From Candidatus Aenigmatarchaeota archaeon (GTDB taxonomy: Archaea > Aenigmatarchaeota > Aenigmatarchaeia > GW2011-AR5), in contig JACPRW010000008.1 of assembly GCA_016193585.1 (NCBI GenBank), positions 3,432-67,431 on the forward strand: a stretch of 64,000 bases of DNA, in the 5' to 3' direction. How positions within the stretch are numbered: position 1 is the stretch's first letter; each line of letters opens with the position of its first letter. The notes below the pieces were generated by a model. It made no database searches. It was not told the DNA's origin and saw only the letters and a program-made list of their open reading frames with translations. The translations under genes were made by a program, and so were the position numbers. This document shows, one piece after another, positions 13,426 through 56,001 of this stretch.

Positions 13426-13444
13426 TGATTGACACCGTGCAATG

Positions 13445-14566: not shown

Positions 14567-14579
14567 AAAGAACCGCCTG

Positions 14580-26717: not shown

Positions 26718-26736
26718 ATGGGGTAGTAGAATGTAA

Positions 26737-26829
26737 TAGTAAAGAACATTGATTTTGGAACATTTTATGATGTTCTTTCCATATAGCAGATTGCAGCTAA
26801 AAGTTCCATTATTATTACAATCTGCTATA
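26737..26829. repeat. mini-element array, reverse C+D with TAA/TAA flanks
   Basis: TAGTAAAGAACAT...ATGTTCTTTCCATA plus TAGCAGATTG...CAATCTGCTA. Confidence 0.9.
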
Positions 26830-26865
26830 ATCTATAAATATCTTCGGACTACCGGGAAGAAAACG

Positions 26866-34735: not shown

Positions 34736-35085
34736 AGCTGGGTGGGAGAGTCGAACTCCCTTATCCGGCTCTCTGCATAAGGGCAAGAACCTAAGGTTCT
34801 CGCCCTTATCAACCCCACACTCCTAGGTATATAGCGGACCAACAAAAGAATACCGACATATTACTTTTGTTGTCCGCTACACGCGGAAAACAACGTTTTC
34901 CGGTGCACCAAAAAGCTTTGCTTTTTGCGTGTAAGTGAACCAAGATATAATACCTGATTATTTACTTGGTTCACTATATGTCCTGATATTATTTGCAATT
35001 CACCTATAGAAAATTGCGCGTTATAGTGAAGCAAATAAATAATACCGATATTATACATTTGCTTCACATATTCTGCCAACCCAGC
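34736..35085 (-). pseudogene. tRNA-Cys(GCA), disrupted: middle exon absent, repeat array in its place
   Basis: 5' GCTGGGTTGGCAGAA (35085-35071) pairs with 3' exon AGCCGG-ATAA-GGGAGTTCGACTCTCCC-ACCCAGC-T (34770-34736); U73; intron end GCAG-AG|A complements CUGC. Confidence 0.72.
34828..35070. repeat. mini-element array A-H-B-(E right half)-(F left half)-G
   Basis: Units match copies at 19828, 25044, 45099, 46342. Confidence 0.9.
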
Positions 35086-39711: not shown

Positions 39712-40296
39712 TTACAGCGCGCCTGCCAGCATTGCAATCCCGAACGCGATAAAGACGATGCCGGATACCGTCTTTATCGTCTTCAGGGGGACTTTCTGTG
39801 CGACGTGCTTCCCGATGTAGACCGCAGGGAACGTGAGCAGCGCCACTGCGGCAAGGGAGCCGAGGAACACGCCTGCAGGGTCGTGCATGCTTGCGGCGAG
39901 CACCATCACCGCGAGTTGCGTCTTGTCGCCAAGTTCAGAAAATGCGACCAGCGAGAAGGAGGCAATGAACGGGCCCTTCCCGCGCTTGACTGATACCTCC
40001 TTGCTGTCGTTGCTCATGATAATATACAGCCCCATCACTACAAACGCGCCTGCGGAAACCAGTTTCAGGTGCGCTAGCTGCACGAACTCGGCGACAACAG
40101 ACGCGAAGATAACGGACAGGAAGAAAAGCAGCGCGAAGCCGCAGAGCGCGCCGAGGAATACGGCGGCGTGGTGCTTCCTGAACCGCGCGCCAAGCAGCAT
40201 TGCAGCGAGCTGCGAGCGGTCGCCGAACTCGCTGAGCGCGACGAGCGCGAATGCAGGGACAAGTCCTTCGAGCATATGATTGTCTACGATGCGCAT
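39712..40296 (-). CDS. TMEM165/GDT1 (UPF0016) Ca2+/Mn2+ transporter
   Basis: EFGDRSQ and ELGDKTQ motifs. Confidence 0.92.
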   Translation of the reverse strand: MRIVDNHMLEGLVPAFALVALSEFGDRSQLAAMLLGARFRKHHAAVFLGALCGFALLFFLSVIFASVVAEFVQLAHLKLVSAGAFVVMGLYIIMSNDSKEVSVKRGKGPFIASFSLVAFSELGDKTQLAVMVLAASMHDPAGVFLGSLAAVALLTFPAVYIGKHVAQKVPLKTIKTVSGIVFIAFGIAMLAGAL

Positions 40297-40309: not shown

Positions 40310-42433
40310 TCATAGTGTTATTTTCGGGTAATTGGTTCTCACCGTAATGGTGGCTGCTGAGGTGTTGCCTGCCCAGTATGCAACGTTGAGGTCGTGGACA
40401 GTGAGAAAGCCGTAGCCTTCCGTATTGTCCTTGGTTATCTTGACGATCATGGTGCCATTGTGCCCTGCGACGGTTATGTGGCCGAACGGATTGGGCCGCA
40501 GCGTATGGCCGGTTGCCGTCGTCACCGGAGTGACCGGCCTGTTGGGAAGTGCCATGACGCCTTGGGTATTGGTTGTTCCTGAAATCTCAGGGGTGTTGTC
40601 GATAATCTCCGTAAAAGCATCTTTCTGGTAGAACGCAATCTGCGCAGAGGCGATGATGCCTCCCGTAGCATTGAGTACCTGGACACTGGTGGCAAGAGGC
40701 GTGTCATAGAGGTATTCACCGAAGTACCCCCGTCGGTGGTTGTAATGCGCGTTCATGCCGCCTGCCGTATGGCTCTCGAAGTACGTGCCATCGCGGTACG
40801 GCGACGTGTCCCCGCCGCCCATGAGGCCGCCGTACGGGAACACAATTTGATCGAATCCATACGCCGGCAGGTTTGACGCAGGCACGACATTGCCGTTGCC
40901 GTCCTGCACCTGTACGCCCCTGTTGGGAGGATCGGTTGCAAGGTTCATCCTATACAAATCGATGATGCCGAGCTGGTGTGCCATCTCGTGAATGAGCCCC
41001 CAGTCTATCGTCGCAGCAAATATGCTCACGTAATTGAGCCATGCACCGCCCTGTCCGTTGGCGTTCGTGGCGTCGCCGTCGGCAAACTGCCACCTGCCGT
41101 CGATAAGAAACTGGTCAGGGTCGCTGTTCATCGGCGACGAGCCGCCGTCAAGATTCTCTGCAACGACAATCTTGTCGATGCGAAGCCTGTCCCGTACACC
41201 ACCGGGCGCAGTTTGGTATCGCGCCTGTTCAAACCGCTCGTTCAGCTTCGCGACCTGTGCCTGTATCCAGTCCTCGAACGAATATGAACCGGCGAGGTTT
41301 GTCCTGTTGTTGAACAGTTCGTAGATGCCGCGCTCAGCCCAGATGCTGATAGTAAGGTCGTGCGAGCCTATGGTGCGCTCGTTGTTCGTTTCAACAGTTT
41401 CTGGAATGGCGCTGTTCTGGTCAACCCTGAAGGTGATGTTCTGCAGAATCAAAGTCCACGCCATCGAATAGGTTAGTGCTGCATCCTGCCCCGGCGCGAT
41501 GCTGCCGTGCGTCCCGGACGCAACGCTGGCATTGTTGACGAGCCACTGGTACCCGAACGAACCGGGCGTGTTGTTTCCTTTGTTGATGACGTGCGCGGTG
41601 TAGGCGACCGTTTCGCCGGTTGCGGGCCACCGCTTCTGGTTCTCGGTCCCCGCGCGGAGCTGCGGCAGATTGTCCACGTATACGACATCGTACCGGTAAT
41701 AACGGGGCGTCCGCGCTATGTAGGTGACGTCAAGGTCTGAGCCGATAAGCGTCGGGATGGTGGTCGTCGTGGTGGTAGGCGGCAGGGTTGTCGTGGTTGT
41801 CACGGTGGTGGTCGTTGTTCCGGTTGAAACGCACGCTCCGTCAACGCATCCATTGGCGCACGGATACGTCTCAGCAGTTGCCGTATTGTCCGCCCGGCAA
41901 TAATATTCGTACAGCAGACCGCCGGAGCAGAAATCTGTGGCATTGAGGTTGCCGTCAAAAACAGAGCCTTTCGTACCGTAGACCTTGCCGCCATCAGAAT
42001 CAGTGCATGTTCGTTGTGGTACTGTCGTCGTTGTCGCTGGCACCGTGGTAGTTGTTGTCGCATTTGATGGCGTGGTGGTTGACGTAGTGGTGGAGGGCAG
42101 GGTTGTGGTTGTACTGGTCGTCGCGGTTGTAGAGGTTGTGGTGGACAGTGTTGTAGCATTAGTTGTGGCAGTGGTGGTTGTTGGTGAAGTTATAGTAGTT
42201 GCAGGCAGCGTCGTTGCTGTCTGGACTGTGGTGGTTGTGATGGTGTTCGCGGGGATTGATGGTGGTGTACGTGCCGCCGTTGTGCTTGTTGTAGGTCGGC
42301 TTGTTGGCATAATGGTTGTGGTAGTTGTCGGCTCAGGCTGCCGCATGGCAATCAACGTGATTGCGCTGACCGAGACAGTAACGGCTACAGCAACGAGCAC
42401 AGCGATGACGACGACCTGCATGACGCCGCGCAT
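40310..42433 (-). CDS. membrane-anchored Thr-rich surface protein with CARDB and putative zinc metallopeptidase domain
   Basis: N-terminal TM, poly-Thr stalk, CTDSDGG Cys module, CARDB (ETVETNNE), HEMAH. Confidence 0.78.
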   Translation of the reverse strand: MRGVMQVVVIAVLVAVAVTVSVSAITLIAMRQPEPTTTTTIMPTSRPTTSTTAARTPPSIPANTITTTTVQTATTLPATTITSPTTTTATTNATTLSTTTSTTATTSTTTTLPSTTTSTTTPSNATTTTTVPATTTTVPQRTCTDSDGGKVYGTKGSVFDGNLNATDFCSGGLLYEYYCRADNTATAETYPCANGCVDGACVSTGTTTTTVTTTTTLPPTTTTTTIPTLIGSDLDVTYIARTPRYYRYDVVYVDNLPQLRAGTENQKRWPATGETVAYTAHVINKGNNTPGSFGYQWLVNNASVASGTHGSIAPGQDAALTYSMAWTLILQNITFRVDQNSAIPETVETNNERTIGSHDLTISIWAERGIYELFNNRTNLAGSYSFEDWIQAQVAKLNERFEQARYQTAPGGVRDRLRIDKIVVAENLDGGSSPMNSDPDQFLIDGRWQFADGDATNANGQGGAWLNYVSIFAATIDWGLIHEMAHQLGIIDLYRMNLATDPPNRGVQVQDGNGNVVPASNLPAYGFDQIVFPYGGLMGGGDTSPYRDGTYFESHTAGGMNAHYNHRRGYFGEYLYDTPLATSVQVLNATGGIIASAQIAFYQKDAFTEIIDNTPEISGTTNTQGVMALPNRPVTPVTTATGHTLRPNPFGHITVAGHNGTMIVKITKDNTEGYGFLTVHDLNVAYWAGNTSAATITVRTNYPKITL

Positions 42434-42499
42434 GAGAACTATTCGCAGAAGTATTGTTTAAAAGCATGTACGCCCGCCGTATGCACTGAAAAAGTTTGC

Positions 42500-42729
42500 T
42501 ATAGATAATTGCGCAGCTTATGTCGTATTATAGCAATACAAGGAAATAAACACGATACGAGGAGAATCGAAGATTCTCCTGTACAGGTGGATTCATGGAA
42601 TCCACCTTGTATTACTTCCTTGTTTGCTATACATGGTGAACTTTACCATGTATGTGAAGCAAATGTATAATATCGGTATTATTTATTTGCTTCACTATAA
42701 AAGTTCCATTATTATTACAATCTGCTATA
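42500..42729. repeat. mini-element array: reverse (F right half), I, L, reverse G, reverse (C left half)
   Basis: Units match copies at 25044, 45099, 46128, 26737. Confidence 0.9.
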
Positions 42730-42948
42730 AATCCTGAATCCCTTCCCGCAGAAATTGCAGAATGAAGCGCGGGTAATGCCTTCTCCATCTTTTTTGTCGC
42801 AGAAAAGATAGCTGGGTAACGTGTTGTGCAGGATTTTCCCACCTCAGGTATCGCTTGCATCGGGGCTGTCGCGGCCTCCGAGCAAACGGGCCGGGGAATG
42901 CGACGGCAATAGAACAGTGGGCGGATACAACGGGCCAATTGTGAACTG

Positions 42949-43251
42949 TTACTCGAGCTGTCCCCTGCCGCGCAGGCCATTAACAGCCTTCCTCAGCACC
43001 TCAATCCATACATGTGGCTGGGCGTAGACAAGCTTCTCCGCGTACACGGCAGCTGTTTCGCGTCCGCGTCCCATATCGGCAGTGAGCAGAGCATAGGCAT
43101 GGCCATCACGCTCCACGAGCGTCAGCGTCGCGTCATTTCCCGTGCTTCCATAGATATTGAAGCCGTTCGCCACGGTGACGCGCGTGCCGTTGCGCATCAC
43201 CGACGGCAGCTGACGCAACTGGCTAATGTATGGAGCGACATCATCGCCCAA
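42949..43251 (-). CDS. hypothetical protein, possibly frameshifted at its 5' end
   Basis: Frame stays open about 120 nt upstream of the TTG but has no in-frame ATG. Confidence 0.4.
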   Translation of the reverse strand: MGDDVAPYISQLRQLPSVMRNGTRVTVANGFNIYGSTGNDATLTLVERDGHAYALLTADMGRGRETAAVYAEKLVYAQPHVWIEVLRKAVNGLRGRGQLE

Positions 43252-43437
43252 TCGGTAGCCTTTCGCATCAAGCTCGTCAAAGGGAAGCTGCTCATCGCCC
43301 GGAACAGGCGCCCATTCCGGGAAATCTTTCCTGAACTGCCATTTCAGCCATGCAGCATGTCTGCCATTCGTTTATGCCCGGCCATGCAGCACGATTTGCT
43401 GCAGCGCATTTAAAGCTTCATTCCAAAGAGGACAGTT

Positions 43438-45006
43438 ATGGGCTTCTACGACAAGCTCGTTTCGAGCCTTCCCGGCATCGCTGAACCGAAAGGTCACCTG
43501 AGCTTCAAGTCGCGGCTCAAGTGGACCGCGGCCGCGCTGCTGCTGTTCCTTGTCATGGGGCAGATTACGCTCTACGGCGTCGCGCCTGCTGCGCTCGGCA
43601 GGTTCCAGTTCTTCGAAATGATTCTCGGCTCCTCGATAGGCTCACTCGTCACGCTGGGTATCGGCCCCATCGTCACGGCTTCCATTATCCTGCAGCTGCT
43701 CGTGGGCAGCAAAATCATACCGTGGGACCTCAAGACGCCCGAGGGCAAGAAGCGCTTCCAGGGAACGCAGAAGCTCATGGCGATATTCTTCTGCATCTTC
43801 GAGGCGGTCGCCTTCGTCAGCTTCGGCGCGGTACAGCCGGTTAACGCCGAGGCAACCACCTTCGCGCTGCTCGTCCTCCAGCTTGCGTTCGGCGCATTTC
43901 TGTTGCTGCTCCTCGACGAGGTCGTCAGCAAGTGGGGCATCGGCTCCGGCATATCGCTGTTCATCGCCGCGGGCGTCGCAAAGACCATTTTCGTCGGCAT
44001 GTTCAACCCGTGCGTCCCGCTCACCGACGAAGTCACCGGCAGGGTCGTCTGCGGCGCGCCTGACGCAAGCAGGGGCTCGTTCTCGGCAGGGCGCATACCC
44101 CAGTTCGTCGAGTACCTGCAGATAGGCGACACGTATCTCGCGTTCACGTCGCTGCTGCCGGTCATAGCGACGATGGTCGTTTTTGCGATTGTTGTCTACG
44201 CCCAGGCGCTCAAGGTAGAGATACCGCTCGCTTTCGGCGCGCTGCGCGGCTTCTCGCGGCGCTGGCCGCTCAAGCTCATCTACACGAGCAACATCCCGGT
44301 CATCCTCATGGCAGCCCTGCTCGCGAACATACAGCTCGTCGGCAATCTTTCCGCGCGGCCCACGGAAGAGGCAACGCGCTGCGGATTCCTCGGCTGCTTC
44401 GACGAACAGGGAAGCCCGGTGGGCGGTCTAGTGTATTATCTTACCATCCCACAGTCGTTGTCAATCCAAGTGCTGTTCCTTGTCTGGCTGCTCGTTGTTT
44501 TTGCTGCCGGTTTCATGGCGTTCTACCTGCGGTATAAAAGCCCGCCCAAGGTCATCCTCGCCTCGCTGCTCGCCGGTTTCGTCATCGCGCTTGCGGCGAC
44601 GAGCGCGTTCGTCAGCCTGCCGACCAGCACGGAAATACTGCGGGTGCTCGTGTACTTCTTCGTTCTGGTCACGGGCGCGACCATCTTCTCGATTTTCTGG
44701 ATATCGACATCGGGTATGGATGCCAAGAGCGTCGCCGAGCAGATAGAAGGCATGGGCATGCAGGTGCCCGGTTTCAGGCGCGACCCGCGCATCGTCGAGC
44801 AGGTACTTGAACGGTATATACCGACGCTTTCCATAATCTCGGGTGTTTTCATCGGCACGCTCGCGGCAGTCGCTGACTTCACGCAGGCAATCGGCTCAGG
44901 AACGGGCATCCTGCTCTCCGTCATGATAATATACAACTTCTACGAGCAGATTTCCATGCGCTACATGGAAGACATGCACCCGGCGCTCAGGAAATTCTTC
45001 GGGTGA
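43438..45006 (+). CDS. secY: preprotein translocase subunit SecY
   Basis: LGIGPIVTASII, GIGSGISLFIA, YTSNIPVIL, PGFRRD, GSGTGILL. Confidence 0.97.
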   Translation: MGFYDKLVSSLPGIAEPKGHLSFKSRLKWTAAALLLFLVMGQITLYGVAPAALGRFQFFEMILGSSIGSLVTLGIGPIVTASIILQLLVGSKIIPWDLKTPEGKKRFQGTQKLMAIFFCIFEAVAFVSFGAVQPVNAEATTFALLVLQLAFGAFLLLLLDEVVSKWGIGSGISLFIAAGVAKTIFVGMFNPCVPLTDEVTGRVVCGAPDASRGSFSAGRIPQFVEYLQIGDTYLAFTSLLPVIATMVVFAIVVYAQALKVEIPLAFGALRGFSRRWPLKLIYTSNIPVILMAALLANIQLVGNLSARPTEEATRCGFLGCFDEQGSPVGGLVYYLTIPQSLSIQVLFLVWLLVVFAAGFMAFYLRYKSPPKVILASLLAGFVIALAATSAFVSLPTSTEILRVLVYFFVLVTGATIFSIFWISTSGMDAKSVAEQIEGMGMQVPGFRRDPRIVEQVLERYIPTLSIISGVFIGTLAAVADFTQAIGSGTGILLSVMIIYNFYEQISMRYMEDMHPALRKFFG

Positions 45007-45098
45007 AATTCCCAAGAAAAAACTACAGTTGCTATTTTTTCTGTCATCATTTTCTTCACAGGTGCAACTGCATTGATCCAGATTCCTGCCTTTTTGAT

Positions 45099-45355
45099 TA
45101 TATGGTGAATTGCACTGGTTATGTCCTGATATTATTTGCAATTCACCTATAGAAAATTGCGCGTTATAGTGAAGCAAATAAATAATACCGATATTATACA
45201 TTTGCTTCACATACATGGTAAAGCAAAGCTTTACCTGTACAGGTGAAACGTTGTTTCACTCCTCGTATCGTGTTTATTTCCTTGTATTGCTATAACCGCA
45301 ATCTGCTATATGGAAAGAACATTGTAAAATGTTCCAAAATCAATGTTCTTTACTA
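45099..45355. repeat. mini-element array E-(F left half)-G-L/I-(C right half)-D
   Basis: Units match copies at 25044, 42500, 22053. Confidence 0.9.
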
Positions 45356-45862
45356 TTAGATTTTTCTAGAGGGAATTAGTGAATTTTTTTTCCATACAAA
45401 CCGCAGCTCCTCTACCGGTATGAACGGGACGAAGAACCGCTCATAGAGGCGGGGGAATCTGTTGACAAAGGACGACATGATGCTGTTCCCCACGATGAGC
45501 TTCCTCCATACCATCTCATACTTCGTCCCCAGAATGTCATTGGTGGTCTTTGTATCAGTGGCATACCAGCTCCAATACGTTTTATGATTCCAATGGTATG
45601 AACCAGAGAGACGGAAGTACGGAACGATGGCATGGAGTTCCCCGCCATCTTTCAAGACACGGTGTATTTCCCCCAACAATCGTTCGATTCCATGAACATG
45701 TTCAAGGAAATGCGTCGCATAGATTCTGTCTACTGATGCCGTCCTGAACGGGAGACCATGCTCCAGATCAGCCCTCACGTCAAGGTCCTCGTTCACGATA
45801 AAGTCGATGCCAATGCACCCATCCTTTTTCTTGCTCCCGCAACCAATGTCAAGGCTTATCAT
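45356..45862 (-). CDS. class I SAM-dependent methyltransferase
   Basis: LDIGCG, LPFRTASVD, HFLEH, HRVLKDGG. Confidence 0.85.
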   Translation of the reverse strand: MISLDIGCGSKKKDGCIGIDFIVNEDLDVRADLEHGLPFRTASVDRIYATHFLEHVHGIERLLGEIHRVLKDGGELHAIVPYFRLSGSYHWNHKTYWSWYATDTKTTNDILGTKYEMVWRKLIVGNSIMSSFVNRFPRLYERFFVPFIPVEELRFVWKKNSLIPSRKI

Positions 45863-46040
45863 GCTTTGGTATCAACTCCTTCCATATGACGTACAAGGAA
45901 AATACCAAAAGGCTGAAACCTGCTGCAACATCTATGATGCGGGAAAATGGGTGCAATTCGTTCCCCTGAGCAAGCAAGTAGAAGAGAGAAATAAGAACCG
46001 CCGTAATTGCCGCAACATAATCGAACGTATTCCGTTTCAT
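45849..46040 (-). CDS. small two-TM membrane protein
   Basis: MKRNTF start with GGGG RBS; the longer ORF-track start lies inside a repeat. Confidence 0.5.
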   Translation of the reverse strand: MKRNTFDYVAAITAVLISLFYLLAQGNELHPFSRIIDVAAGFSLLVFSLYVIWKELIPKHDKP

Positions 46041-46127
46041 AAAAACCCCTTCATCCACATACTCATGCTCATAAGATATGGCTGCCACGAATCGCTGCCG
46101 TTGGTGGAGAAGATAACTATCAGCATG

Positions 46128-46256
46128 TATAGCAAACAAGGAAGTAATACAAGGTGGATTCCATGAATCCACCTGTACAGGAGAATCTTCGATTCTCCTC
46201 GTATCGTGTTTATTTCCTTGTATTGCTATAATACCTGATTATTTACTTGGTTCACT
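46128..46256. repeat. mini-element array: reverse I plus B right half
   Basis: Reverse complement of 42531-42629, followed by AATACCTGATTATTTACTTGGTTCAC. Confidence 0.88.
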
Positions 46257-46276
46257 CTAAATGAAATCGCCTTGCT

Positions 46277-46550
46277 TGCACAGCACGTTAGGCGGCTATC
46301 TTCCCTACAACTCACCTCTTTTTCATACGCAGTGAAATCCTTATATATGGTGAATTGCACTGGTTATAGTGGACCAACAAAAGAATACCAACATATTACT
46401 TTTGTTGTCCGCTACACGCGGAAAACAAAGTTTTCCGGTGCACCAAAAAGCTTTGCTTTTTGGGTGTAAGTGAACCAAGATATAATACCTGATTGTTTAC
46501 TTGGTTCACTATATCTATATCATGCACAGCACGTTAGGCGGCTATCTTCC
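46277..46550. repeat. 28-bp direct repeats (46277-46304, 46523-46550) enclosing array (E left half)-A-H-B at 46342-46513
   Basis: TGCACAGCACGTTAGGCGGCTATCTTCC occurs twice. Confidence 0.85.
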
Positions 46551-46643
46551 TGCGGCGTGAATAATGGTATGCCGATGTATCGGTACGCACGAGGGTTGCA
46601 TCCCCCGGCTCGTTTGTTCGGAGGCTGCAACTTAATAATCAAC

Positions 46644-46976
46644 CTACACCACGATTCCCTCCCTGAGCGCTTCGCTGACGATAGATACTTTCTTCTTTTC
46701 GCGCTCGAATTCTTCAGGGGTGTAGCATATGAAATCAGCAGGATAGCCCAGCTTCCAGTATTTGCGCAAGCCAAGAGACCGCTTCAAAAAGCTCTTTTGC
46801 GAAAATTTTTTGCTCACCAGTATAAGGTCTACATCGCTATGCTCGCTCATATCGCCGCGAGCTGCAGAACCGAATATGATTATTTTTTCTATTCCTATAT
46901 TTTTTTTTGAAACTTGCTTGAAGTCCCTTACACCTTCGATTATTTTTTTGTTTTCTTCAGACTTTCCTTTGCCCAT
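46644..46976 (-). CDS. minimal nucleotidyltransferase (MNT antitoxin)
   Basis: FGSAARG...SDVDL. Confidence 0.9.
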   Translation of the reverse strand: MGKGKSEENKKIIEGVRDFKQVSKKNIGIEKIIIFGSAARGDMSEHSDVDLILVSKKFSQKSFLKRSLGLRKYWKLGYPADFICYTPEEFEREKKKVSIVSEALREGIVV

Positions 46977-47308
46977 GTAACCACCTCTTTGCCGTAGGAA
47001 AGAGCCTCCTCTGCTTTTGCCTCTGTATACTCCTCGTCAAGCGGGTACCTTGTCACAAGATAATGCGGGTTTAGTTTATCGCACGTGTCGACCACGTCCT
47101 CAGGCGCACCAGCCTTTTCTGCCAAATCCACAAGATTGTGTATTTTCCACAGCCTTTTGAATTTCAGTATGTACAGCGCTTTCAACGCCTTCTCAGCCGC
47201 TTGGTGGGAAAGGAAAGCGGAAACATCGAATAGTTTCTGTTGCAAATTTATTTCAGCAGCCACGAGGTCGTGCTCAGCCTTCTTCATCCACCTTCCCGCT
47301 TCTTCCAT
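46940..47308 (-). CDS. HEPN domain protein
   Basis: HQAAEKALKA, HNL, YLVTRYP. Confidence 0.9.
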   Translation of the reverse strand: MEEAGRWMKKAEHDLVAAEINLQQKLFDVSAFLSHQAAEKALKALYILKFKRLWKIHNLVDLAEKAGAPEDVVDTCDKLNPHYLVTRYPLDEEYTEAKAEEALSYGKEVVTWAKESLKKTKK

Positions 47309-47330
47309 AGAAATAGTTAGCTACCACCTT

Positions 47331-47819
47331 TTATATGCTCTTGGTGAGCGCCTCCTTCAGCTTCCCGTACGTCGTCTCCAATGATTCGGAAACCAGTTTC
47401 GCCTCGGCGACGGTCGCCATGAAGTTGGCGTCGCCGCTCCATCGCGGCACGAGGTGCGTGTGCAGGTGAGGAAATCCTGCTCCCGCCGCCTTGCCAAGGT
47501 TGGTGCCGATGTTGAAGCCGTCGGGCTTCGTCGTGCTCCTGAGCGCTGCGATGGCCCGGCGGAGCGCATCCTGCTGCTCGGCAAATTCTTCATTAGTGAG
47601 GTCGCCGTACTCGGTCACGTGGCGGTACGGAGCGACCATGAGATGGCCGGGGTTGTAGGGATATAAGTTAAGCAGCATGAATGTGTGCGTGCCGCGCCAG
47701 AGAATGAAACATTCTTTGTCGCCGCCATCCGGCCTGCTGCAGAAGATGCACTCGAATGTCTTGCCGCGCGCGATGTCAGCCATGAACTGCGACCGCCACG
47801 GCGCCCACAATCGCTCCAT
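47331..47819 (-). CDS. HIT family nucleotide hydrolase (Ap4A hydrolase-like)
   Basis: LWAPWR, CIFC, NLYPYNPGH, HLHTH. Confidence 0.92.
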   Translation of the reverse strand: MERLWAPWRSQFMADIARGKTFECIFCSRPDGGDKECFILWRGTHTFMLLNLYPYNPGHLMVAPYRHVTEYGDLTNEEFAEQQDALRRAIAALRSTTKPDGFNIGTNLGKAAGAGFPHLHTHLVPRWSGDANFMATVAEAKLVSESLETTYGKLKEALTKSI

Positions 47820-48155: not shown

Positions 48156-48535
48156 AAAGAATTTTGATAGATGCTGCTATTTTCATAGACCATTTCAGAA
48201 ACTACGAACCTGCAACAAAGCTTATGGAAGCTATTTCAGGCGAAGACAGCAGTATCGTGGCATCAGTTCTCACAGTAGCCGAAGTGCTTTCGGGGGAAGA
48301 TTGTAGTGAAACTGCCATCAGAACGCAAATTGGGGAATTCTTTGCTCCTGTAGAAAAGCTGGATGTGGATATGGATATCGCCAGAAAGGGTGCTGAATTC
48401 AGAAGGGTTTACGGCATTCCGCTTGTCGATGCACTGATAGCAGCCACGGCATTCAGATTGAACGTTCCTTTGTACAGCCGAAACAAAAAGGATTTCGGCA
48501 GGATTAAGGAAATCAGGCTCGTCGTACCTTATTGA
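48152..48535 (+). CDS. vapC: VapC PIN-domain toxin
   Basis: LIDAAIFID...E...DALIAATA...NKKDF. Confidence 0.88.
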   Translation: MKRILIDAAIFIDHFRNYEPATKLMEAISGEDSSIVASVLTVAEVLSGEDCSETAIRTQIGEFFAPVEKLDVDMDIARKGAEFRRVYGIPLVDALIAATAFRLNVPLYSRNKKDFGRIKEIRLVVPY

Positions 48536-48930
48536 GCCGCAACTTCGGCGCTGACAACCTTCCCGCCCGCCTTCTCTATCTTTTCCTTCGCTTTCGGCGA
48601 GCAGTAGGCGACGTGAACGGTAAGAGAAACAGCAACCGTGCCGCGCGAAAGAAGCCTGCCGTAGCCGAACTCGGCGAGGTGTACCGTGCCGTTGCTCGCA
48701 AGCTTCTGCAGCTCGCCGACGTTGATTGCCATCACCTTGCGGCCGAGCGGGTGGAAGCCCGTGTGGCCGAAGTGGTCGCGGGCGTACGAGTACACGTACG
48801 AGCGGTTGTGTTTGGTTGACCCGCCCCATCCCTTGCCACCCTTGCTTCCCTTGCCGCGGTGCTTTTTTTTGCTGCCGTAGCCGCGGCGGTAGCCGCGCAT
48901 TTTATGGACTTTCTTCGTTCGGCGCTTCAT
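48529..48930 (-). CDS. rpl15: 50S ribosomal protein uL15
   Basis: RGYRRGYGSKKKHRGKGSKGGKG...AKEKIEKAGG. Confidence 0.95.
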   Translation of the reverse strand: MKRRTKKVHKMRGYRRGYGSKKKHRGKGSKGGKGWGGSTKHNRSYVYSYARDHFGHTGFHPLGRKVMAINVGELQKLASNGTVHLAEFGYGRLLSRGTVAVSLTVHVAYCSPKAKEKIEKAGGKVVSAEVAAQ

Positions 48931-48974
48931 AACTATTCACTTTGTTTCCTTTCGTCGCTTTCTTTATTATGCAA

Positions 48975-49105
48975 TTTTTCTTTCTTTGCTCAGAAACCAA
49001 AGTTTCTGGCATGCCAAAATGCGCTGCACATAGCCGGGTGCCATGTTATTTTTCTTTTCCCAAGGCTTTTCTTTTTCTAAAAGAAAAGGCTTAAAGAAAA
49101 GGGCC
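48975..49105. repeat. T/A-rich intergenic repeat with CAGAAAC/GTTTCTG hairpin
   Basis: About 50-bp core shared with 59170-59221. Confidence 0.7.
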
Positions 49106-49154
49106 TACATTGTGTGATTGGTATACAATCGCACAAGTTGTGAAGATGGAATCT

Positions 49155-49538
49155 TCACAACATCATCTTCTTGACGAGTATCCCGATGTCCTTTCCCCAG
49201 TAGCCGACGTCGCCTTTCGGGTAGCGGCGGGAAAGCGACCTGAATCCTTTGAGCGGCGGCTTGAGGTGCATGCGCTTCCGCTCGCCGAGCGCAGCCTTCA
49301 GCTCGTTGTCGAGCTCGCCCCACGCCAGGCAGCTCTCGGCCTTTTTGACCATGCCAACAATGGAGTCGGTGCGGGGCAGGATGACGAGCGTGTGCTTGCG
49401 CTTGAGGCCGAGCATGGCCATGGTGTCCTCAATCGTTCCCCGCTTTCCGACACCCCTGCGTATGCGCACCACGACCAATGTCCCATGAGCTGCTTGACGC
49501 ACCTGTGGCGCGTCGTTTCGCTTCGTGTCGTATCCCAT
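49155..49538 (-). CDS. rpl30: 50S ribosomal protein uL30
   Basis: VVRIR...TMAMLGL...GMVKKA...WGE...LKPP. Confidence 0.92.
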   Translation of the reverse strand: MGYDTKRNDAPQVRQAAHGTLVVVRIRRGVGKRGTIEDTMAMLGLKRKHTLVILPRTDSIVGMVKKAESCLAWGELDNELKAALGERKRMHLKPPLKGFRSLSRRYPKGDVGYWGKDIGILVKKMML

Positions 49539-49545
49539 GCTCCAT

Positions 49546-49842
49546 TCACCTGATTTTTTCTGTTACCAGCTTCGCCATCTGGTATCCGGCGAGCCCGCTC
49601 ATCGCGTATATCAGCCAGAGAATGATCGGCCAGTCGCCGTCGACGTAATGCCACAGGTTAAGCGTGATGCCGACGTACTCGATCAGCGCTGCGAGCGCGA
49701 GCGCAGAAGCTGCAAACACGACGTTTTGCCTAGTTTCGTTCTTCTTTCGGTAGCTTGCGCGGTACAAGAAGATAACGGCAAAGAGAGCGAGCGGTATTGC
49801 AAGGAGCGCGAACCAGTTGGCGCTGAACGTGGTGTATATCAT
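49546..49842 (-). CDS. small membrane protein inserted between rps5 and rpl30
   Basis: Three TM helices, ATGA overlap with rps5. Confidence 0.7.
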   Translation of the reverse strand: MIYTTFSANWFALLAIPLALFAVIFLYRASYRKKNETRQNVVFAASALALAALIEYVGITLNLWHYVDGDWPIILWLIYAMSGLAGYQMAKLVTEKIR

Positions 49843-50534
49843 ACCGCTGCCTCCGCCACGGCTGCGGGCTTGTTTTCTTCAATTTCGGCAAGCTTCATGC
49901 GGTTTATTGCCTTGAATGCGTTGTACAGCGCAAAGGCTGCGTTCACCCTGCTGCCGGTGTTGCCGTGGCTTTTTGACCAGATATCGCGGATGCCGGCGAT
50001 GTGCATGATCTTTTTCGACTCATCGCTGATGCAGAGGCCGATGCCTTTCGGCGCAGGCTTGAGCAGCACGCTGACCGAGCCTGACTTGCCGCTCACTTCG
50101 ACCGGTATCGAGTGCTTTTCGTTGCAGGCGCATTCCCATGAACCGCAGCTCCGGCGGACCGGCATGATGGCGAGCTTCGCGTTCTGCGTTGCCTTTTCTA
50201 TGGCAGCCCGGTGCTCCTTGGATTCGCTCTTGCCGATGCCGAAATACCCGTTGCCGTTGCCGATGATGGCAACCGCGGAGATCGTGTACCTCCGGCCCGA
50301 GCGGTGCATGCGCGTTGTCCGCTTGGTCGGCGTGCGCCTCTTGCCGCCTCCCTTGCCCGACGAACCGCCGACGAAAATGATTTCTGTCTTGAGGTTCGGA
50401 AGCAGCTTGTCGATGATTTCAGGTTCCTTGATCTTCCTCCCGGCAGCGAAAACTTCGTCCAGCGAGGTGACCTTCCCTTCCATGACCTCTTTCCCCAGTT
50501 CTGTTTTGGGGACCCAGTTCGCTAGTGATGCCAT
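49839..50534 (-). CDS. rps5: 30S ribosomal protein uS5
   Basis: WVPKTELGK...CGSWEC...PAPKGIGL. Confidence 0.96.
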   Translation of the reverse strand: MASLANWVPKTELGKEVMEGKVTSLDEVFAAGRKIKEPEIIDKLLPNLKTEIIFVGGSSGKGGGKRRTPTKRTTRMHRSGRRYTISAVAIIGNGNGYFGIGKSESKEHRAAIEKATQNAKLAIMPVRRSCGSWECACNEKHSIPVEVSGKSGSVSVLLKPAPKGIGLCISDESKKIMHIAGIRDIWSKSHGNTGSRVNAAFALYNAFKAINRMKLAEIEENKPAAVAEAAV

Positions 50535-50541
50535 AGTCGTA

Positions 50542-50571
50542 ATACCCCGCGTTTTGCGCGTCGTATCCCAT
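50542..50571 (-). promoter_or_regulatory. ATGGGATACGA-stem-GGGTAT hairpin before rps5
   Basis: ATAC-GA-CGCG-CAAAA-CGCG-GG-GTAT. Confidence 0.7.
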
Positions 50572-50582
50572 ATGAGTTAAAG

Positions 50583-51197
50583 TTATTTAACGTCCTCCCA
50601 TGCTTCCTCTTCTTCCCCGGCTTCTGAAGGTGCTGCGTTGAACTTAGCGAGAATGGCGTTTTTGACTTCTTCGAAATGAGCGGGCAGCTGCTCGGGTTCG
50701 AGTGCCTGCCTGAGGTACGCGGAGAACTGCCGCTGGTAGCGTTCCTTGCCTGCAGCTTTCAGTTTCTTCGCGTAGTCCGCGATATGCGTGCCGGCAATCC
50801 GTTCCTTGCCGGGCACGATCTCGCTGCCGAGCGGCAGCATGATGCCAGCGTCCCTGATGCCGGCAGCGCATGCGTAGAGCGCTGACCCCTTCACCGACGT
50901 CTGCAGGCCGGTGGCGAGAACCGCTTCGTTGATCCCCTTCGCGCGCGCCTGCAACCCGGCGAGTAGCCCCGTCAGGTACGCCGCGGGCAGGTTGCTGCAG
51001 TGGCCTTTCCAGCCGTAGTTCCGGAGGCTTTTGGATATCGTTTCGGATGCTGTCCGGTCGCCGCGCTGCTCATACACAATGAACTGCACGTGCATGTGCG
51101 CGAGCCCCCTTCTGACGACTACCCGCATCTTGCCGGACCTGAGCAGCGCAAGACGCTGCCGGTAGTCCGTTTTCTGCTCGCGTCGTCTGCGGAACAT
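50583..51197 (-). CDS. rpl18: 50S ribosomal protein uL18
   Basis: FRRRREQKTDYRQRL...NLPAAYLTG. Confidence 0.95.
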   Translation of the reverse strand: MFRRRREQKTDYRQRLALLRSGKMRVVVRRGLAHMHVQFIVYEQRGDRTASETISKSLRNYGWKGHCSNLPAAYLTGLLAGLQARAKGINEAVLATGLQTSVKGSALYACAAGIRDAGIMLPLGSEIVPGKERIAGTHIADYAKKLKAAGKERYQRQFSAYLRQALEPEQLPAHFEEVKNAILAKFNAAPSEAGEEEEAWEDVK

Positions 51198-51248
51198 GCT
51201 TTAACCCTTGCTGATTTGATACCTGAACGTATCCCCAGTCGAACCAAG

Positions 51249-51458
51249 CTATTCGACGCGGACATCGGTGCCGGCACGCCTGATTGCTTTTTCCAGGACA
51301 TCCGACGTTATCGTTCTCGTCACAATACCATCCACATACGTTCGGGGAGTTTTATATACGAAGTACTGCCGACCGGAATTTTGTTTCATGTCGCCGGCTA
51401 CCTTCGTCGCAAACGCTTCAGGCTTGAACGGTTCCTGCGATGAAGGCTGCGTTACCAT
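51249..51458 (-). CDS. small hypothetical protein between rpl19e and rpl18
   Basis: MVTQPSS..., 69 aa, starts 5 nt after the rpl19e stop. Confidence 0.5.
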   Translation of the reverse strand: MVTQPSSQEPFKPEAFATKVAGDMKQNSGRQYFVYKTPRTYVDGIVTRTITSDVLEKAIRRAGTDVRVE

Positions 51459-51463
51459 GCGTA

Positions 51464-51907
51464 TCACTTCTTCAGCATGTTGTTTTTTTCCATGTAGCCC
51501 GTGAGGTGTGCCTTGCTCCTGAACATGCCGCTTTTCGATATCATGTAGAGCTTGCGGAACGTTTTCTTTTCCAGTTTCCCTTCGTCGCGGAGCTGTTTCA
51601 GCAGGACCCTGATGGTCCTGATGCGCTTGACCCATGCCCGCTTGCGGGTGCCGGCTACCCGCCCCTTGCGCGAGCCGGTGCTCCTCCGGCGCCCCTTCGT
51701 TTTCTGCTTCATGAGGACGCGCGCCCGGTAGCTGCTGAGGCCGCGTTTCGGCGCGGCGGTAATGATGCCGTCGCGGACGAGGCGCCGCACGTCAGCCGCG
51801 GTGATTGCGTCCGCTATGTCGCTGTTCCGGCCGGGGTCAAGGCGCACCCGCGAAACGCCGCACTTGAGGACCCGTGCCGCTATCTGCTTCTGTGACTTGA
51901 GATCCAT
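51464..51907 (-). CDS. rpl19e: 50S ribosomal protein eL19
   Basis: QKQIAARVLKCG...GSRKG...WVKRIR. Confidence 0.95.
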   Translation of the reverse strand: MDLKSQKQIAARVLKCGVSRVRLDPGRNSDIADAITAADVRRLVRDGIITAAPKRGLSSYRARVLMKQKTKGRRRSTGSRKGRVAGTRKRAWVKRIRTIRVLLKQLRDEGKLEKKTFRKLYMISKSGMFRSKAHLTGYMEKNNMLKK

Positions 51908-51912
51908 ACGCA

Positions 51913-52098
51913 TCAGTTCCACATTGTTTCATCAGTTTCCGCTTGCTGGTGCATCGACACCGAAAAGTCATTGAATGCAACGTCGCAGCGCCGGCAATGA
52001 AATATTGTGCTGATTGCATAGCAATCGCACAATTTGCCGGATTCCTCTGAATCTGGCAATATCCCCCGCTGCAGCTCCCTGCCAATAGTGATTATCAC
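51913..52098 (-). CDS. small Cys-rich hypothetical protein between rpl32e and rpl19e
   Basis: GGAGG RBS; LCDC...HCRRC putative Zn ligands. Confidence 0.45.
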   Translation of the reverse strand: MIITIGRELQRGILPDSEESGKLCDCYAISTIFHCRRCDVAFNDFSVSMHQQAETDETMWN

Positions 52099-52113
52099 GC
52101 GTCATCCTCCGTT

Positions 52114-52629
52114 TCAGATTGCCGCTTTTCCTGTTCCTTCGTGCTGCACTGGTGCAGCGTTTTCCTTCTGCTCTTCTGCTTCCCTTGTCTTCTTTGCTTC
52201 TTTTTTCTCCTTTGCTTTCGCCTCTTCCTTCTTTTTCTCCTCCTTTTTGCTCTCCCTTCGTTTCGCAAGCGCCGCGGTGAGCTTCTCGGCGCGCCGGAGC
52301 TTGTTCATGTTCATGATGTGCAGGCCGAGTTCCTTTGCTTTCGCTCCGAGAACTGCCGTTTTCCGGCTGCCGATTGACGAAGCAATGATGATTGCTTTCT
52401 TGTCCATCGCCTTCACGCGTTCGAGGTCTGCCTCGTTGGCGACCATTGCAACGCTGTAGCCGCGCACGGAATATCGCGTCTCCCGCGGCGTCCGGTAGCC
52501 GGCTGACGCCTTGATGCCGCTGCCCGGCTTGCGGACGCGCTGCTTGCTGTGCCGGCCTTTCGGCTTTCGCCAGCGCGTGCCGAGCCTCTTGAGGCGGTGA
52601 TAGTCTTGAGTCTTAAATCGTTTCGACAC
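52114..52629 (-). CDS. rpl32e: 50S ribosomal protein eL32 with Lys/Glu-rich C-terminal tail
   Basis: RLKRLGTRWRKPKGRHSKQR...GYRTP. Confidence 0.93.
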   Translation of the reverse strand: MSKRFKTQDYHRLKRLGTRWRKPKGRHSKQRVRKPGSGIKASAGYRTPRETRYSVRGYSVAMVANEADLERVKAMDKKAIIIASSIGSRKTAVLGAKAKELGLHIMNMNKLRRAEKLTAALAKRRESKKEEKKKEEAKAKEKKEAKKTREAEEQKENAAPVQHEGTGKAAI

Positions 52630-52630
52630 G

Positions 52631-53191
52631 TTACAGCTCCTCTCCGTTCTGCAGGTATTTACCGGCGATAAAGATGCCGTCCTGGAAGATGCGGCGGTCG
52701 CGGCCGGTGATTCTGCACGCCTGCTCGATATTGCTCGCCGTCTGCCCGACATCATCCTTGCTGATGTCGGTTATGGTGATTTCTTCCTTGTCTGTTTTGA
52801 CGCTGCAGTCGCCGATGATGCGGGCGATGCGGAGCCCCTTTTCGCCGAGGAAATTCTTTATCTGGACCTCCTTGTCCTTGACCGTCACGGTCAGCGGGAA
52901 GTGTGAATAGGTTATCTTCATGACGTACTTGTAGCCAACGGAGACGCCGGTAATCATGTTCTCGACGTGCGACTGGATGGTGCCCGCTATCGCCTTGTGG
53001 GTACGCCGCTCACTTGCCGACGTTATCTTGACACCGCCGTTTTTCTCTATCCTGACGGTCTCGCTGAAGCGCGGATTGAAGAAATCTTTTTCGAGCGTTC
53101 CTTTGGGGCCCTTGACCGTGACGACGGCACCGGCTATCTCAACGCTCACGTTTTCCGGAATCGTGACCACCTTGACAACTGCAGGCTCCAT
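52631..53191 (-). CDS. rpl6: 50S ribosomal protein uL6
   Basis: VKGPKG...YSHFP...NFLGE...DRRIFQDGI. Confidence 0.96.
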   Translation of the reverse strand: MEPAVVKVVTIPENVSVEIAGAVVTVKGPKGTLEKDFFNPRFSETVRIEKNGGVKITSASERRTHKAIAGTIQSHVENMITGVSVGYKYVMKITYSHFPLTVTVKDKEVQIKNFLGEKGLRIARIIGDCSVKTDKEEITITDISKDDVGQTASNIEQACRITGRDRRIFQDGIFIAGKYLQNGEEL

Positions 53192-53201
53192 GGGGAATCA
53201 C

Positions 53202-53588
53202 TCAATACAAGTATGCAACGAGCTTGCCGCCGAGCTCGCTCGATGCCGCGTCTTTCTGGCTCATGACGCCTTTCGGCGTGGAAACGATGAGGATGCCGAA
53301 ATCACGTGCAGGAAGGAATCGCTTCTCCCATTTCTCGTATTCATTCTTCTTGACGGCGAAGCGCGGCTTGATAGTGCGCGATTTGTTGATGCGGCCGATG
53401 AGCTCGACCTCGAATTTACCGCCCTTGCCATCGTCGATGAACTCGAATCTCCCGATGTATCCTTCTTTCTGGACGACGAGGAGCACGTTCTTGATGAGCC
53501 TTGAGGACGGAACGATGCATGTTTTCTTGCCTGTCTGCTCCGCGGTATTGAGCACGAACAGCACATCAGCAAGCAGGTCTTGTTTCAT
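53202..53588 (-). CDS. rps8: 30S ribosomal protein uS8
   Basis: EGYIGRFE...LPARDFG...STPKGVM...GGKLVAY. Confidence 0.96.
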
Positions 53589-53592
53589 AGTG

Positions 53593-53751
53593 TCACCAGT
53601 ATTTCTTGAAACCGAGGTCGGGTGCTATCTCGCGGAAGCAGCGGCGGCAGTACATGAGGTCGTACTTTCGTATGACGCCGTGGAGCGAGCCGCAGCGCAC
53701 GCACTGGTGCGCGCCTTTCCCCATCTTTCGTTTCACTTTTTTCAAACGCAT
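53593..53751 (-). CDS. rps14: 30S ribosomal protein uS14 (not in ORF track)
   Basis: Manual translation [52 protein letters not shown]. Confidence 0.95.
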
Positions 53752-53755
53752 AATC

Positions 53756-54244
53756 TCATTCCTCAATCTGGACGCCGAATTTTTCTTTTGCGAACTGCAT
53801 GGCTTCCTCGTGCGTGATGCGGTGCTTCTTGCCGACCGGTACCGGCAGCCGCCGCCGTTTCACCGCGTAGCCGGGCCGCTCAAGCGTTACGCATACGTCC
53901 ATGCCAACGATGCCCAGTTTTGGGTCGTATTCCATGCCCGGTATGTCTATGTACTCCCTGATGCCGAAGGCGAAGTTTCCGTATGCATCGAAGTTGCCCG
54001 GCGAGAGCCTGTTTTCTTTTGACTCGAGCAGGCGCTTGACAAATGCCTCGGCACCTTTTCGCACGGTCACCTTGCAGCCGATGGGCTTGTTTTTCGGGAC
54101 ATTGAAGGTCGAGCGGCGCTTTGTTTTCGTGATGACCGCTTTTGCTCCGGCCACGCGCTCGATCACGGTCCGCGCGTTCTCGATGGGAAGCGTGGTGCCG
54201 CACCCTATATTCAGGACTACTTTCTCGATGCGTATCCGCTTCAT
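53756..54244 (-). CDS. rpl5: 50S ribosomal protein uL5
   Basis: IEKVVLNIG...[16 protein letters not shown]...GMDV. Confidence 0.96.
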
Positions 54245-54291
54245 CGGGTGCGGTTTGGGAACCGTGACGCTTGTCTGGATACTCGCTCACC

Positions 54292-54978
54292 TTATTGGAT
54301 TGTTACGGCAGGCTTGCCGTCTCCGATTACAAAAATATAATGTTCGGGTATCGGTATCGTTTCGCTGTCTGCTTCCACGATAACCGTGTTCGGCTGCGGC
54401 GTCCTTGTCACCACGCGTTCCACGACCTTGCCGATCATTCCCCGCTTGTTGCCGTTGGTGACCATGATAGCAGCGCCCTTCTTCAGCTTGAGCACGCTCT
54501 TGATCGATTTCGCCTCGAGGTCGAAGACGACGGTGTCCTTTGTCTTGTATTCGTCGCGGGGAACGAGTATGTTCCTGCCGTCGTGCAGGTTGAGCTGCAC
54601 GCCGTTTCGCGTGTAGGTTTTGTCCAGTATCTTGAGCAGCTTGAGCTTCGCATCCTCGCCGCTTGTTTTCTGGAGCCGGAGACCCTTGCGGTCCGGAAGC
54701 ATGCGGTACGTTTCGTCGCCGACCGTCAGGATGTCCATGAGCCCGACCGGCAGGCGGTGGTCCCTCCGCACCGTCGAGTCGACGCGCACCTGTCCCTGGC
54801 GAAGGATGTGCTTCGCCTCGCGAAGCGTTTCCGCGTAGTCAAGCACGTCCCTGAGGACGATGCCGAGCGGTATGCACGACCGTTTCGCGTGGGCTCCCGG
54901 AAGGGGAGCTACCGCAAAACGCGCTGTCTTTCGTTCCATAGGCCAGAATACCGGCGCTTCGGTTCGTTTGAGATGCAT
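54292..54978 (-). CDS. rps4e: 30S ribosomal protein eS4
   Basis: HLKRTEAP..WP...PVGLMD...LHDGRN. Confidence 0.96.
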   Translation of the reverse strand: MHLKRTEAPVFWPMERKTARFAVAPLPGAHAKRSCIPLGIVLRDVLDYAETLREAKHILRQGQVRVDSTVRRDHRLPVGLMDILTVGDETYRMLPDRKGLRLQKTSGEDAKLKLLKILDKTYTRNGVQLNLHDGRNILVPRDEYKTKDTVVFDLEAKSIKSVLKLKKGAAIMVTNGNKRGMIGKVVERVVTRTPQPNTVIVEADSETIPIPEHYIFVIGDGKPAVTIQ

Positions 54979-54979
54979 A

Positions 54980-55007
54980 ATACCCCACGTTCAGTGTCGT
55001 ATCCCAT
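54980..55007 (-). promoter_or_regulatory. ATGGGATACGA-stem-GGGTAT hairpin before rps4e
   Basis: ATAC-GA-CAC-TGAAC-GTG-GG-GTAT-T-ATG. Confidence 0.7.
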
Positions 55008-55021
55008 AGTACGCGTTGCTG

Positions 55022-55447
55022 TCATTCCTTCTTCTCGGCTTTGGCAGACTTTTTTGGTTCCGCCCCTTTCGCCCTGTCGACGGCTTTTTTCCTCATCCGG
55101 TCGTCGAGCATAAGCTTGGTTATCTTGACGTTGCTCGGGTCGAGCGCCATCTGCACATCCTGCCCCGAAACCTTTTTTACCTTCACGGTATCCACGTAAA
55201 TCTTCAGCTTTTTCATGTCGACCGTGGCAACGAGTCCCTTCTTCCCCCGGTGCTCGCCGTTCATGACGACGACTTCATCGCCCTTCCGCACCTGGAGCGA
55301 ACGCTTGTTGTACTGCTCGCGCAGCTTTTTGTCGAGGTGCGCTGCCATGAGCTTCTGCCTGACGTGGAGCGGCGCCTGGTTGCGGTACTTCCGTTGCTTG
55401 CGGGGCTGCGTGCTCCTCACCCACGTGCGCGAAAACCGTCTCATCAT
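55022..55447 (-). CDS. rpl24: 50S ribosomal protein uL24
   Basis: STQPRKQRK...VRKGDEVVVMNG...DPSNV. Confidence 0.96.
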   Translation of the reverse strand: MMRRFSRTWVRSTQPRKQRKYRNQAPLHVRQKLMAAHLDKKLREQYNKRSLQVRKGDEVVVMNGEHRGKKGLVATVDMKKLKIYVDTVKVKKVSGQDVQMALDPSNVKITKLMLDDRMRKKAVDRAKGAEPKKSAKAEKKE

Positions 55448-55583
55448 ACCCCACCTTCGGTGCGACAAGGACTTTTGTCAAAGTCCTTGTGCACGCAAAG
55501 ACCTTTGGTCTTTACTGTGTCGTGCTCAAAGAATCTTCGATTCTTCGTGTACACAAAGACCTCCGGTCTTTGTCGTATCCCAT
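55446..55583 (-). repeat. ATGGGATACGA motif expanded by four inserted hairpins, before rpl24
   Basis: Same ends as 1441-1468; contains AAGGACTTT/AAAGTCCTT, AAAGACC/GGTCTTT twice, AAGAATC/GATTCTT. Confidence 0.8.
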
Positions 55584-55599
55584 TTTACAATATCCCGTG

Positions 55600-56001
55600 T
55601 TACAGTACCATGCTTGCTATTTTTCCTATGGTCGAAAACCGCTCGACCGCTTCTTTCGCGATGACCGACCTGATTTCGGTTCCCTGGGGGTCGAACGTCT
55701 TCGGGTTCACCAAGATTGCCGCATTATCGGTGAACTTGACGCGCGTTCCGTCGCTCCTGCGGAATTCCTTTGTCTGCCTGACGATGACCGCATGGACGAC
55801 TTGGTGGCGCAACTTCTCCTTGCCCTTGGTGACGCTGCAGATGACGACATCCGCTATGCCTGCTTTCGGCAGCCTTCGCAGGCGTCCCTTGTAGCCGATG
55901 ACTGCTATGAGCTCAAGCTCCTTGGCGCCGCTGTTGTCCGCGCACGTGAGGAGCGTCTTGAGCTGGATTGTCTTCGGTATCGCTCCACTGACTGCTTTCA
56001 T
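55600..56001 (-). CDS. rpl14: 50S ribosomal protein uL14
   Basis: CADNSGAK...AVIVRQ...FTDNAA. Confidence 0.97.
   Translation of the reverse strand: MKAVSGAIPKTIQLKTLLTCADNSGAKELELIAVIGYKGRLRRLPKAGIADVVICSVTKGKEKLRHQVVHAVIVRQTKEFRRSDGTRVKFTDNAAILVNPKTFDPQGTEIRSVIAKEAVERFSTIGKIASMVL

Follow-up and report, generated by a model that had tools for sequence, protein, structure and literature searches.

A secY segment apparently inverted between two copies of a composite mini-element in an Aenigmatarchaeota genome

The secY locus and its two element arrays

The window analysed here is a stretch of 64,000 nucleotides (nt), positions 3432-67431 of contig C7 (JACPRW010000008.1) in assembly GCA_016193585.1, a metagenome bin of 1.17 Mb in 10 contigs with 90.75% completeness and 0.11% contamination. 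The source is a small groundwater archaeon of the Aenigmatarchaeota, within DPANN, and the nearest named SecY records come from Aenigmatarchaeota metagenome bins (53-68% identity at five loci in assembled genome contigs). In this window, the genes from a GDT1-family transporter gene to the ribosomal protein operon, over about 16 kb, all lie on the minus strand except secY, which is bracketed by two arrays of small hairpin elements that contain inverted copies of the same composite mini-element. We argue below that a segment of about 2.5 kb including secY has probably been inverted in the cell by recombination between these two copies. The coordinates of all features are collected in Table 1.

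The secY gene is intact and present in a single copy, as one tblastn match was obtained in the whole genome, and the encoded protein aligns over its full length with those of relatives at 52-71% identity. The 707 nt upstream of the gene were considered as a displaced gene of the operon. This candidate was dropped, since no Pfam family was recognised in them and the only match among 5.8 billion proteins was the sequence itself.

The structure of the mini-element was established by aligning all 20 copies of the hairpin G in the genome together with their flanks. The element, here called X, consists of G (50 nt), an optional two-hairpin cassette H1 and an element Y that carries an optional cassette H2. 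The first-pass annotation had placed secY between two copies of G at 42651-42697 and 45167-45213; both were found there, contained in a perfect 60-nt inverted repeat, and the alignment also bore out the module compositions that it had given for the two arrays. A full copy on contig C3 (C3:306710) shows what each of the two is missing: 31 nt within H1 in the left copy (X_a), and 72 nt running from the H1 end to the H2 end in the right copy (X_b). The two therefore have only their first 60 nt and their last 37 nt in common. Because these internal deletions differ, X_a and X_b were separate copies before any exchange between them. With 20 copies of G in 1.17 Mb, the calculated chance expectation for inverted G pairs lying this close together is about 0.4. 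A nearby inverted pair is thus not by itself beyond chance; the reciprocal exchange of its flanks is, and the argument rests on that swap.

Table 1. Positions of the genes, elements and repeats in the window (strand left empty where none applies)
Feature	Position	Strand	Remarks
Intact C-D unit	22081-22177	+	aligns with the joined C-left and D flanks
Intact E-F unit	25044-25140	+	empty site for X, target TA; aligns with the joined E.F-left and F-right flanks
Second intact C-D copy	26734-26830	opposite to 22081-22177	aligns with the joined C-left and D flanks
GDT1-family transporter gene	39712-40296	-	Pfam GDT1, 3.7e-38; homologue at 9298-9852 of locus L040
CARDB-domain surface protein gene	40310-42433	-	Pfam CARDB, 2.9e-08; between GDT1 and secY; not in genome G038
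Left array	42496-42736	-	minus-strand reading: C-left / X_a (G, H1 remnant, Y with H2) / F-right; from repeat cover, module boundaries and alignment of 20 G flanks
37-nt shared block, left arm	42528-42564		end of Y; 100% pair; alternative crossover site
60-nt repeat, left arm	42641-42700		G plus 10 nt; 100% complementary to right arm
Segment between the 60-nt arms	42701-45163		2463 nt, apparently inverted; from repeat search
Upstream segment of secY	42731-43437		707 nt, moves with secY; only an orphan minus-strand frame, 42949-43371
TTTAAA, putative secY promoter	43410-43415		28 nt before the secY ATG
secY	43438-45006	+	522 amino acids, intact; Pfam SecY, 2.3e-65; Sec61 plug, 2.2e-05
Right array	45096-45365	+	E.F-left / X_b (G, H1 fused to the end of H2, Y end) / D; from repeat cover, module boundaries and alignment of 20 G flanks
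60-nt repeat, right arm	45164-45223		100% complementary to left arm
37-nt shared block, right arm	45259-45295		100% pair
Small methyltransferase gene	45356-45862	-	adjoins right array; in the inserted block between secY and rpl15
107-amino-acid frame	45849-46172	-	in the inserted block
Two further arrays	46120-46263 and 46343-46517		in the inserted block (45356-47819)
HEPN gene	46940-47308	-	6e-27; in the inserted block
HIT-family gene	47331-47819	-	1.2e-14; in the inserted block
rpl15 (uL15)	48529-48930	-	last of the ribosomal protein run; Pfam Ribosomal_L27A, 1e-12; own-genome family search
rpl30 (uL30)	49155-49538	-	Pfam Ribosomal_L30, 1.2e-08
Ribosomal protein operon	about 48529-56000	-	operon homologues on the minus strand in the comparison with relatives

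Exchanged flanks and gene order in relatives

In its usual setting, X lies inside the small palindromic element F, which is preceded by E (F-left/X/F-right), and at one further site on contig C2 (C2:25351) a copy of X is inserted in a C-D element. At the secY locus these settings are mixed. The outer flanks of the two arrays are exchanged reciprocally, with C-left and F-right around X_a and E.F-left and D around X_b, and when the matching halves were joined they aligned end to end with the intact E-F and C-D units of the window. This agrees with the earlier proposal that turning the segment back restores both pairs. The same proposal included a TTA duplication around C-D; the target duplication is TA, not necessarily TTA.

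To see how such pairings occur over the whole genome, we counted them with partners taken within 450 nt, which gave 65 paired filled sites. F-left was paired with F-right at 36 filled and 28 empty sites, and C-left with D at 27 filled and 17 empty sites. Each mixed pairing was found once among the filled sites and at none of the empty ones: C-left with F-right is the left secY array and F-left with D is the right one. The 45 rows scored as unpaired F-left arise largely from the short search pattern itself, whose 16 nt also fit F-right at its outer end, on the opposite strand. These rows are therefore not orphans and were left out of the interpretation; 11 C-left rows also had no partner within 450 nt. 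When positions 42701-45163 were inverted in silico, the left array matched C2:1-224 over 245 nt with 91% identity, and the gaps in this match corresponded to the H1 remnant. As the array now stands, its best match covers 144 nt. Altogether, one reciprocal exchange between two copies of this mini-element in inverted orientation explains both chimeric arrays.

Unmatched flanks were also seen at two other sites, window positions 35021-35070 (F-left/G/unique DNA) and C2:30527 (unique DNA/X/F-right), which could be the paired products of another exchange between distant sites. The genes that lie upstream of the collinear block in G038, the relative described below, have no homologues here by which this second exchange could be judged.

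Gene order around secY was compared at 29 loci, drawn from the 58 genomes with a match among 61 genomes of the order that were searched. Those with at least 900 nt of upstream sequence were taken as informative, which left 28 loci and one uninformative locus. In 26 of the 28, rpl15 was found directly upstream of secY and on the same strand, the two matches lying 2-495 nt apart, so the earlier statement that the two genes normally form a co-directional pair holds for these relatives. The end of the spc cluster likewise reads L30-L15-secY in one complete DPANN genome, according to the portion of PMC10833476 that was available. The two remaining loci, in genomes G038 and G027, had no rpl15 within 1.5 kb upstream of secY.

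A wider stretch was compared with G038 (locus L040), where about 14 kb have the gene order of the window. Its order is a 190-amino-acid gene, a 407-amino-acid gene and an MgtE pair, all on the plus strand, followed on the minus strand by GDT1, secY (9858-11387, which the GDT1 homologue at 9298-9852 directly follows in the direction of transcription), two unrelated genes, rpl15, rpl30 and rps5 onward. The window has the same order and strands from a 193-amino-acid gene through the MgtE pair and GDT1 to rpl15, rpl30 and rps5, and secY is the only common gene on the opposite strand. Relatives therefore keep the uninverted order, both in the 26 loci and in G038, and the segment alone differs; no relative lacking the arrays was seen with secY inverted.

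Turning the segment back places secY on the strand of rpl15, as had been anticipated. It does not rebuild the rpl15-secY pair. The first-pass annotation had rpl15 as the gene beside the right array, where the neighbour is in fact the methyltransferase gene; rpl15 lies 3.5 kb away, and even in the restored orientation secY would start about 4.1 kb from it, with inserted genes in between. The interval between the two genes holds 3.5 kb of minus-strand genes in the window, and these differ from those in G038.

Two larger rearrangements were considered and rejected. Since an MgtE pair follows secY on the same strand at loci L001 and L006, we asked about a longer inversion that includes this pair, which is contradicted by the arrangement in G038 being equal to that of the window. 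The CARDB gene was also considered as part of a larger moved block, and it showed no similarity to a 687-amino-acid protein of G038 (E = 1.1).

Inversion, mis-join and other explanations

The sequence logic and the synteny support the inversion well as a reading of the locus, and the swapped arrays that the first-pass annotation described were confirmed. The order of events that we propose is that X would have inserted independently at two places and in opposite orientations, in an E-F element just downstream of secY and in a C-D element about 0.7 kb ahead of the gene, and that each copy would then have acquired its own internal deletion. One homologous exchange, presumably carried out by the recombination machinery of the host, would then have flipped the DNA between them, secY included. 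The earlier proposal had inverted the segment between the G copies. The crossover could have taken place there, within the identical 60-nt block, or else within the 37-nt block at the end of Y. The view that the mini-elements rearranged a core locus is in line with the single exchange that accounts for both arrays and with the synteny. That the exchange occurred in the cell is probable, by an argument that remains indirect.

The indirect part concerns the assembly. Exactly the observed swapped flanks would also appear if secY were on the minus strand in the cell and the assembler had gone through the segment in the wrong direction from one inverted copy to the other, and the contigs of this bin often end in these repeats, G alone being present in 20 copies. 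The public data for the stretch consist of four runs of one groundwater study, available as k=31 contigs, and the data examined contained no read spanning an array. A 2425-nt contig covers positions 42702-45126 in all four runs at a depth equal to that of both flanks (left flank, segment and right flank at about 15/15/13, 10/11/12, 22/20/19 and 43/41/32), which fits one single-copy genome and argues against a mis-join. These contigs give no verdict on orientation, because both orientations have identical 31-mers. Joints on opposite strands in the run contigs were rejected as evidence on the locus, since they trace to the third array outside the stretch concerned or to other copies of the repeats. 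Indirect evidence comes from the contig ends of the genome. Of these 20 ends, 15 close with an exact repeat whose length is exactly 141 nt (140, 139, 121, 91 and 10 nt in the other five), implying a de Bruijn assembly with k=141, which we take to be the default top value of MEGAHIT. At this k, the graph path through the arrays would be unambiguous, because the 60-nt repeat is spanned into distinct sequence on both sides and the common blocks of the two copies measure only 60 and 37 nt. In addition, mixed pairings occur at this locus and nowhere else among the 65 paired sites, so such arrays are not generally scrambled by the assembly. Contig C7 is also broken at neither array. We consider a mis-join unlikely.

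Several points nevertheless weigh against an inversion in the cell. An exchange performed in silico at the repeat yields an identical signature, so the flanks cannot decide between cell and assembler. The genome is a metagenome bin of 10 contigs, its assembler is identified from the contig ends only, and no k=31 contig in the four runs bridges either array, the contigs being limited at 42529, 42702, 45126 and 45332. No assembly of the same species was found among the genome contigs, where SecY identities were 53-68% (best 68%), or among the metagenome contigs, which gave one secY locus at 64% identity and a 72-nt fragment. Finally, secY is already detached from rpl15 in G038 and G027, and the linkage of the two genes is thus looser here than in most archaea.

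An inversion could also have arisen together with transposition. Replicative intramolecular transposition leaves two inverted copies around an inverted segment, and a single X in the E-F element that attacked a TA in the nearby C-D element would have produced the second copy and the inversion in one step. This fits the layout of the locus, and the C-D junction is a used target, as the copy at C2:25351 shows, where X lies in the other orientation. The two copies would, however, have started out identical, and their two large and different deletions would demand two more events. TA-duplicating elements of the mariner and IS630 kind are moved by cut-and-paste. Moreover, no matching transposase was found: the profiles DDE_3, Y1_Tnp and DDE_Tnp_4 had no match in the genome, at 90.75% completeness, and the one gene of IS4/5 type lacks matching ends. 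The mariner profile matched no control genome, and that search carries no information. For these reasons, we regard a transposition-coupled inversion as very improbable.

Even less credit is given to a programmed switch, in which the inverted repeats would be regulated sites for flipping secY and both orientations would coexist. Perfect inverted repeats do bracket a single gene, and Correia elements of Neisseria are reported to invert in the sections seen of PMC10969869. Reversibility, which the first-pass annotation had suggested, found no support at this locus. Pfam scans recognised no recombinase among the neighbouring genes or elsewhere in the window, no serine recombinase (Resolvase) match was obtained in the genome, and the sole tyrosine recombinase match (Phage_integrase) lies on contig C2. 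As for the repeats, they belong to an ordinary dispersed element present in 20 copies, and flipping need not alter expression, since the upstream region of secY moves along. Contig C7 runs unbroken through both arrays, and because of this two abundant orientations are unlikely. The broader suggestion that secY keeps flipping in the population, to be read with or against the ribosomal operon, and that Correia-like elements actively remodel core operons in reduced DPANN genomes, is to be treated as speculative and very improbable.

A recombinational inversion, the reading we prefer, may have been nearly neutral, because secY would retain its own promoter. The gene probably continues to be transcribed from it and expressed, since its own 0.7-kb upstream region flips along with it; the putative promoter is the TTTAAA motif ahead of the ATG. 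Such an event belongs to a known type and is an ordinary rearrangement, and what is unusual is that a conserved gene pair is affected, as rpl15-secY is among the most stable gene pairs of archaea and bacteria. [quoted passage not shown] The available parts of two papers describe MITEs as hotspots for homologous recombination (PMC10969869) and place breakpoints of gonococcal genome rearrangements at Correia elements (PMC2649163). The present case differs from these in that the identical repeats are very short (60 and 37 nt), the segment holds a single essential gene and the host belongs to DPANN. With Hin, Fim and shufflons it shares a segment bounded by inverted repeats for which two orientations are possible; unlike in those systems, there is no adjacent recombinase and there are no dedicated sites, one orientation was seen, and a whole essential gene with its upstream region is inverted, not a promoter. 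If the inversion is real, secY would be a clean and fully reconstructible case in which elements of less than 250 nt, identical over only 60 nt, sufficed to reverse an essential gene.

The mini-element family and further features of the locus

The modules of the arrays fold as strong hairpins, with z-scores of -5.3 to -8.8 relative to shuffled sequences and the extreme value of -8.8 for G. The modules of X have terminal inverted repeats, are small, lack coding capacity and are present in many copies, as is characteristic of MITEs. Comparison of the empty site at 25044-25140 with filled F sites showed a 2-nt TA overlap, so that X duplicates TA when it inserts in F, and filled and empty sites gave the same result for the insertions of H1 and H2 inside X. 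The genome has 254 patches of short repeats, which together account for 2.9% of it, and 32 of the 40 other genomes of the family that were sampled contain modules of the element. A rich assortment of nested, TA-inserting hairpin elements is thus present in this family of Aenigmatarchaeota, amounting to about 3% of the present genome, which matters for assembly, binning and the reading of synteny in such genomes. A census reports high MITE densities for some DPANN genomes, in the part of PMC11602168 that was available. No publication joining Aenigmarchaeota with miniature inverted-repeat elements was found, and a broader literature search had nothing on the lineage among the matches listed; the supplementary MITE lists of that census might already contain elements from it.

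These elements resemble the Correia elements (CREE) of Neisseria, which are also small (about 50-200 nt), non-coding and palindromic, use a TA target, have TATAG...CTATA ends once inserted, vary in length through internal deletions and form hairpins as transcripts or DNA. Search patterns for CREE begin with TATAG in the excerpt seen of PMC2649163. The present elements differ from CREE in having many distinct inverted-repeat sequences, heavy nesting in arrays, two-hairpin cassettes around TGTACA and an archaeal host. They can be called Correia-like by resemblance, and common descent or a common transposase might conceivably underlie it. One element type, which starts at 46363 and also occurs at 34833 and 22240-22290, begins with about 19 nt that closely resemble the CREE search pattern in the same excerpt of PMC2649163; this may be a coincidence or reflect shared recognition of the ends.

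Six contig ends (C2 right, C4 left, C5 right, C6 left, C7 right and C9 left) enter one common element end, the one on C7 lying about 2 kb past the end of the window. Read on the reverse strand, this element encodes what by eye appears to be the C-terminus of an integrase-core transposase (rve-like). It looks like a multi-copy IS whose body is absent from the bin and which broke the assembly.

The junction between rpl15 and secY has received repeated insertions in the family. In L040 (G038:C7), positions 11388-15066 contain 3.7 kb of unrelated genes, among them those for a prenyltransferase-like toroid protein, an ECF-S-like protein and an ArsR regulator, and matches resembling the hairpin elements lie in the rpl15-secY gap at about 3100-3140 of L034 and about 3690-3750 of L024. 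In the inserted block of the window, the HEPN gene directly adjoins the HIT-family gene, and no nucleotidyltransferase partner was recognised.

The left secY array is also joined to the third array, past the methyltransferase gene, by a 115-nt inverted repeat of 99% identity (Y with H2, 42525-42639 and 46120-46234), which is a second possible substrate for inversion. This third copy also has odd flanks, which are unique DNA on one side and, on the other, one half of a different element. The array at 46343-46517 is bracketed by a 28-nt direct repeat (46277-46304 and 46523-46550) in otherwise unique sequence, which is too long for the TA duplication seen elsewhere. At 45214-45262, 42558-42609, C3:306710 and C6:23839, TA sites within X have received cassettes in which two hairpins surround a central TGTACA. 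The layout of these cassettes is constant and their stem sequences differ.

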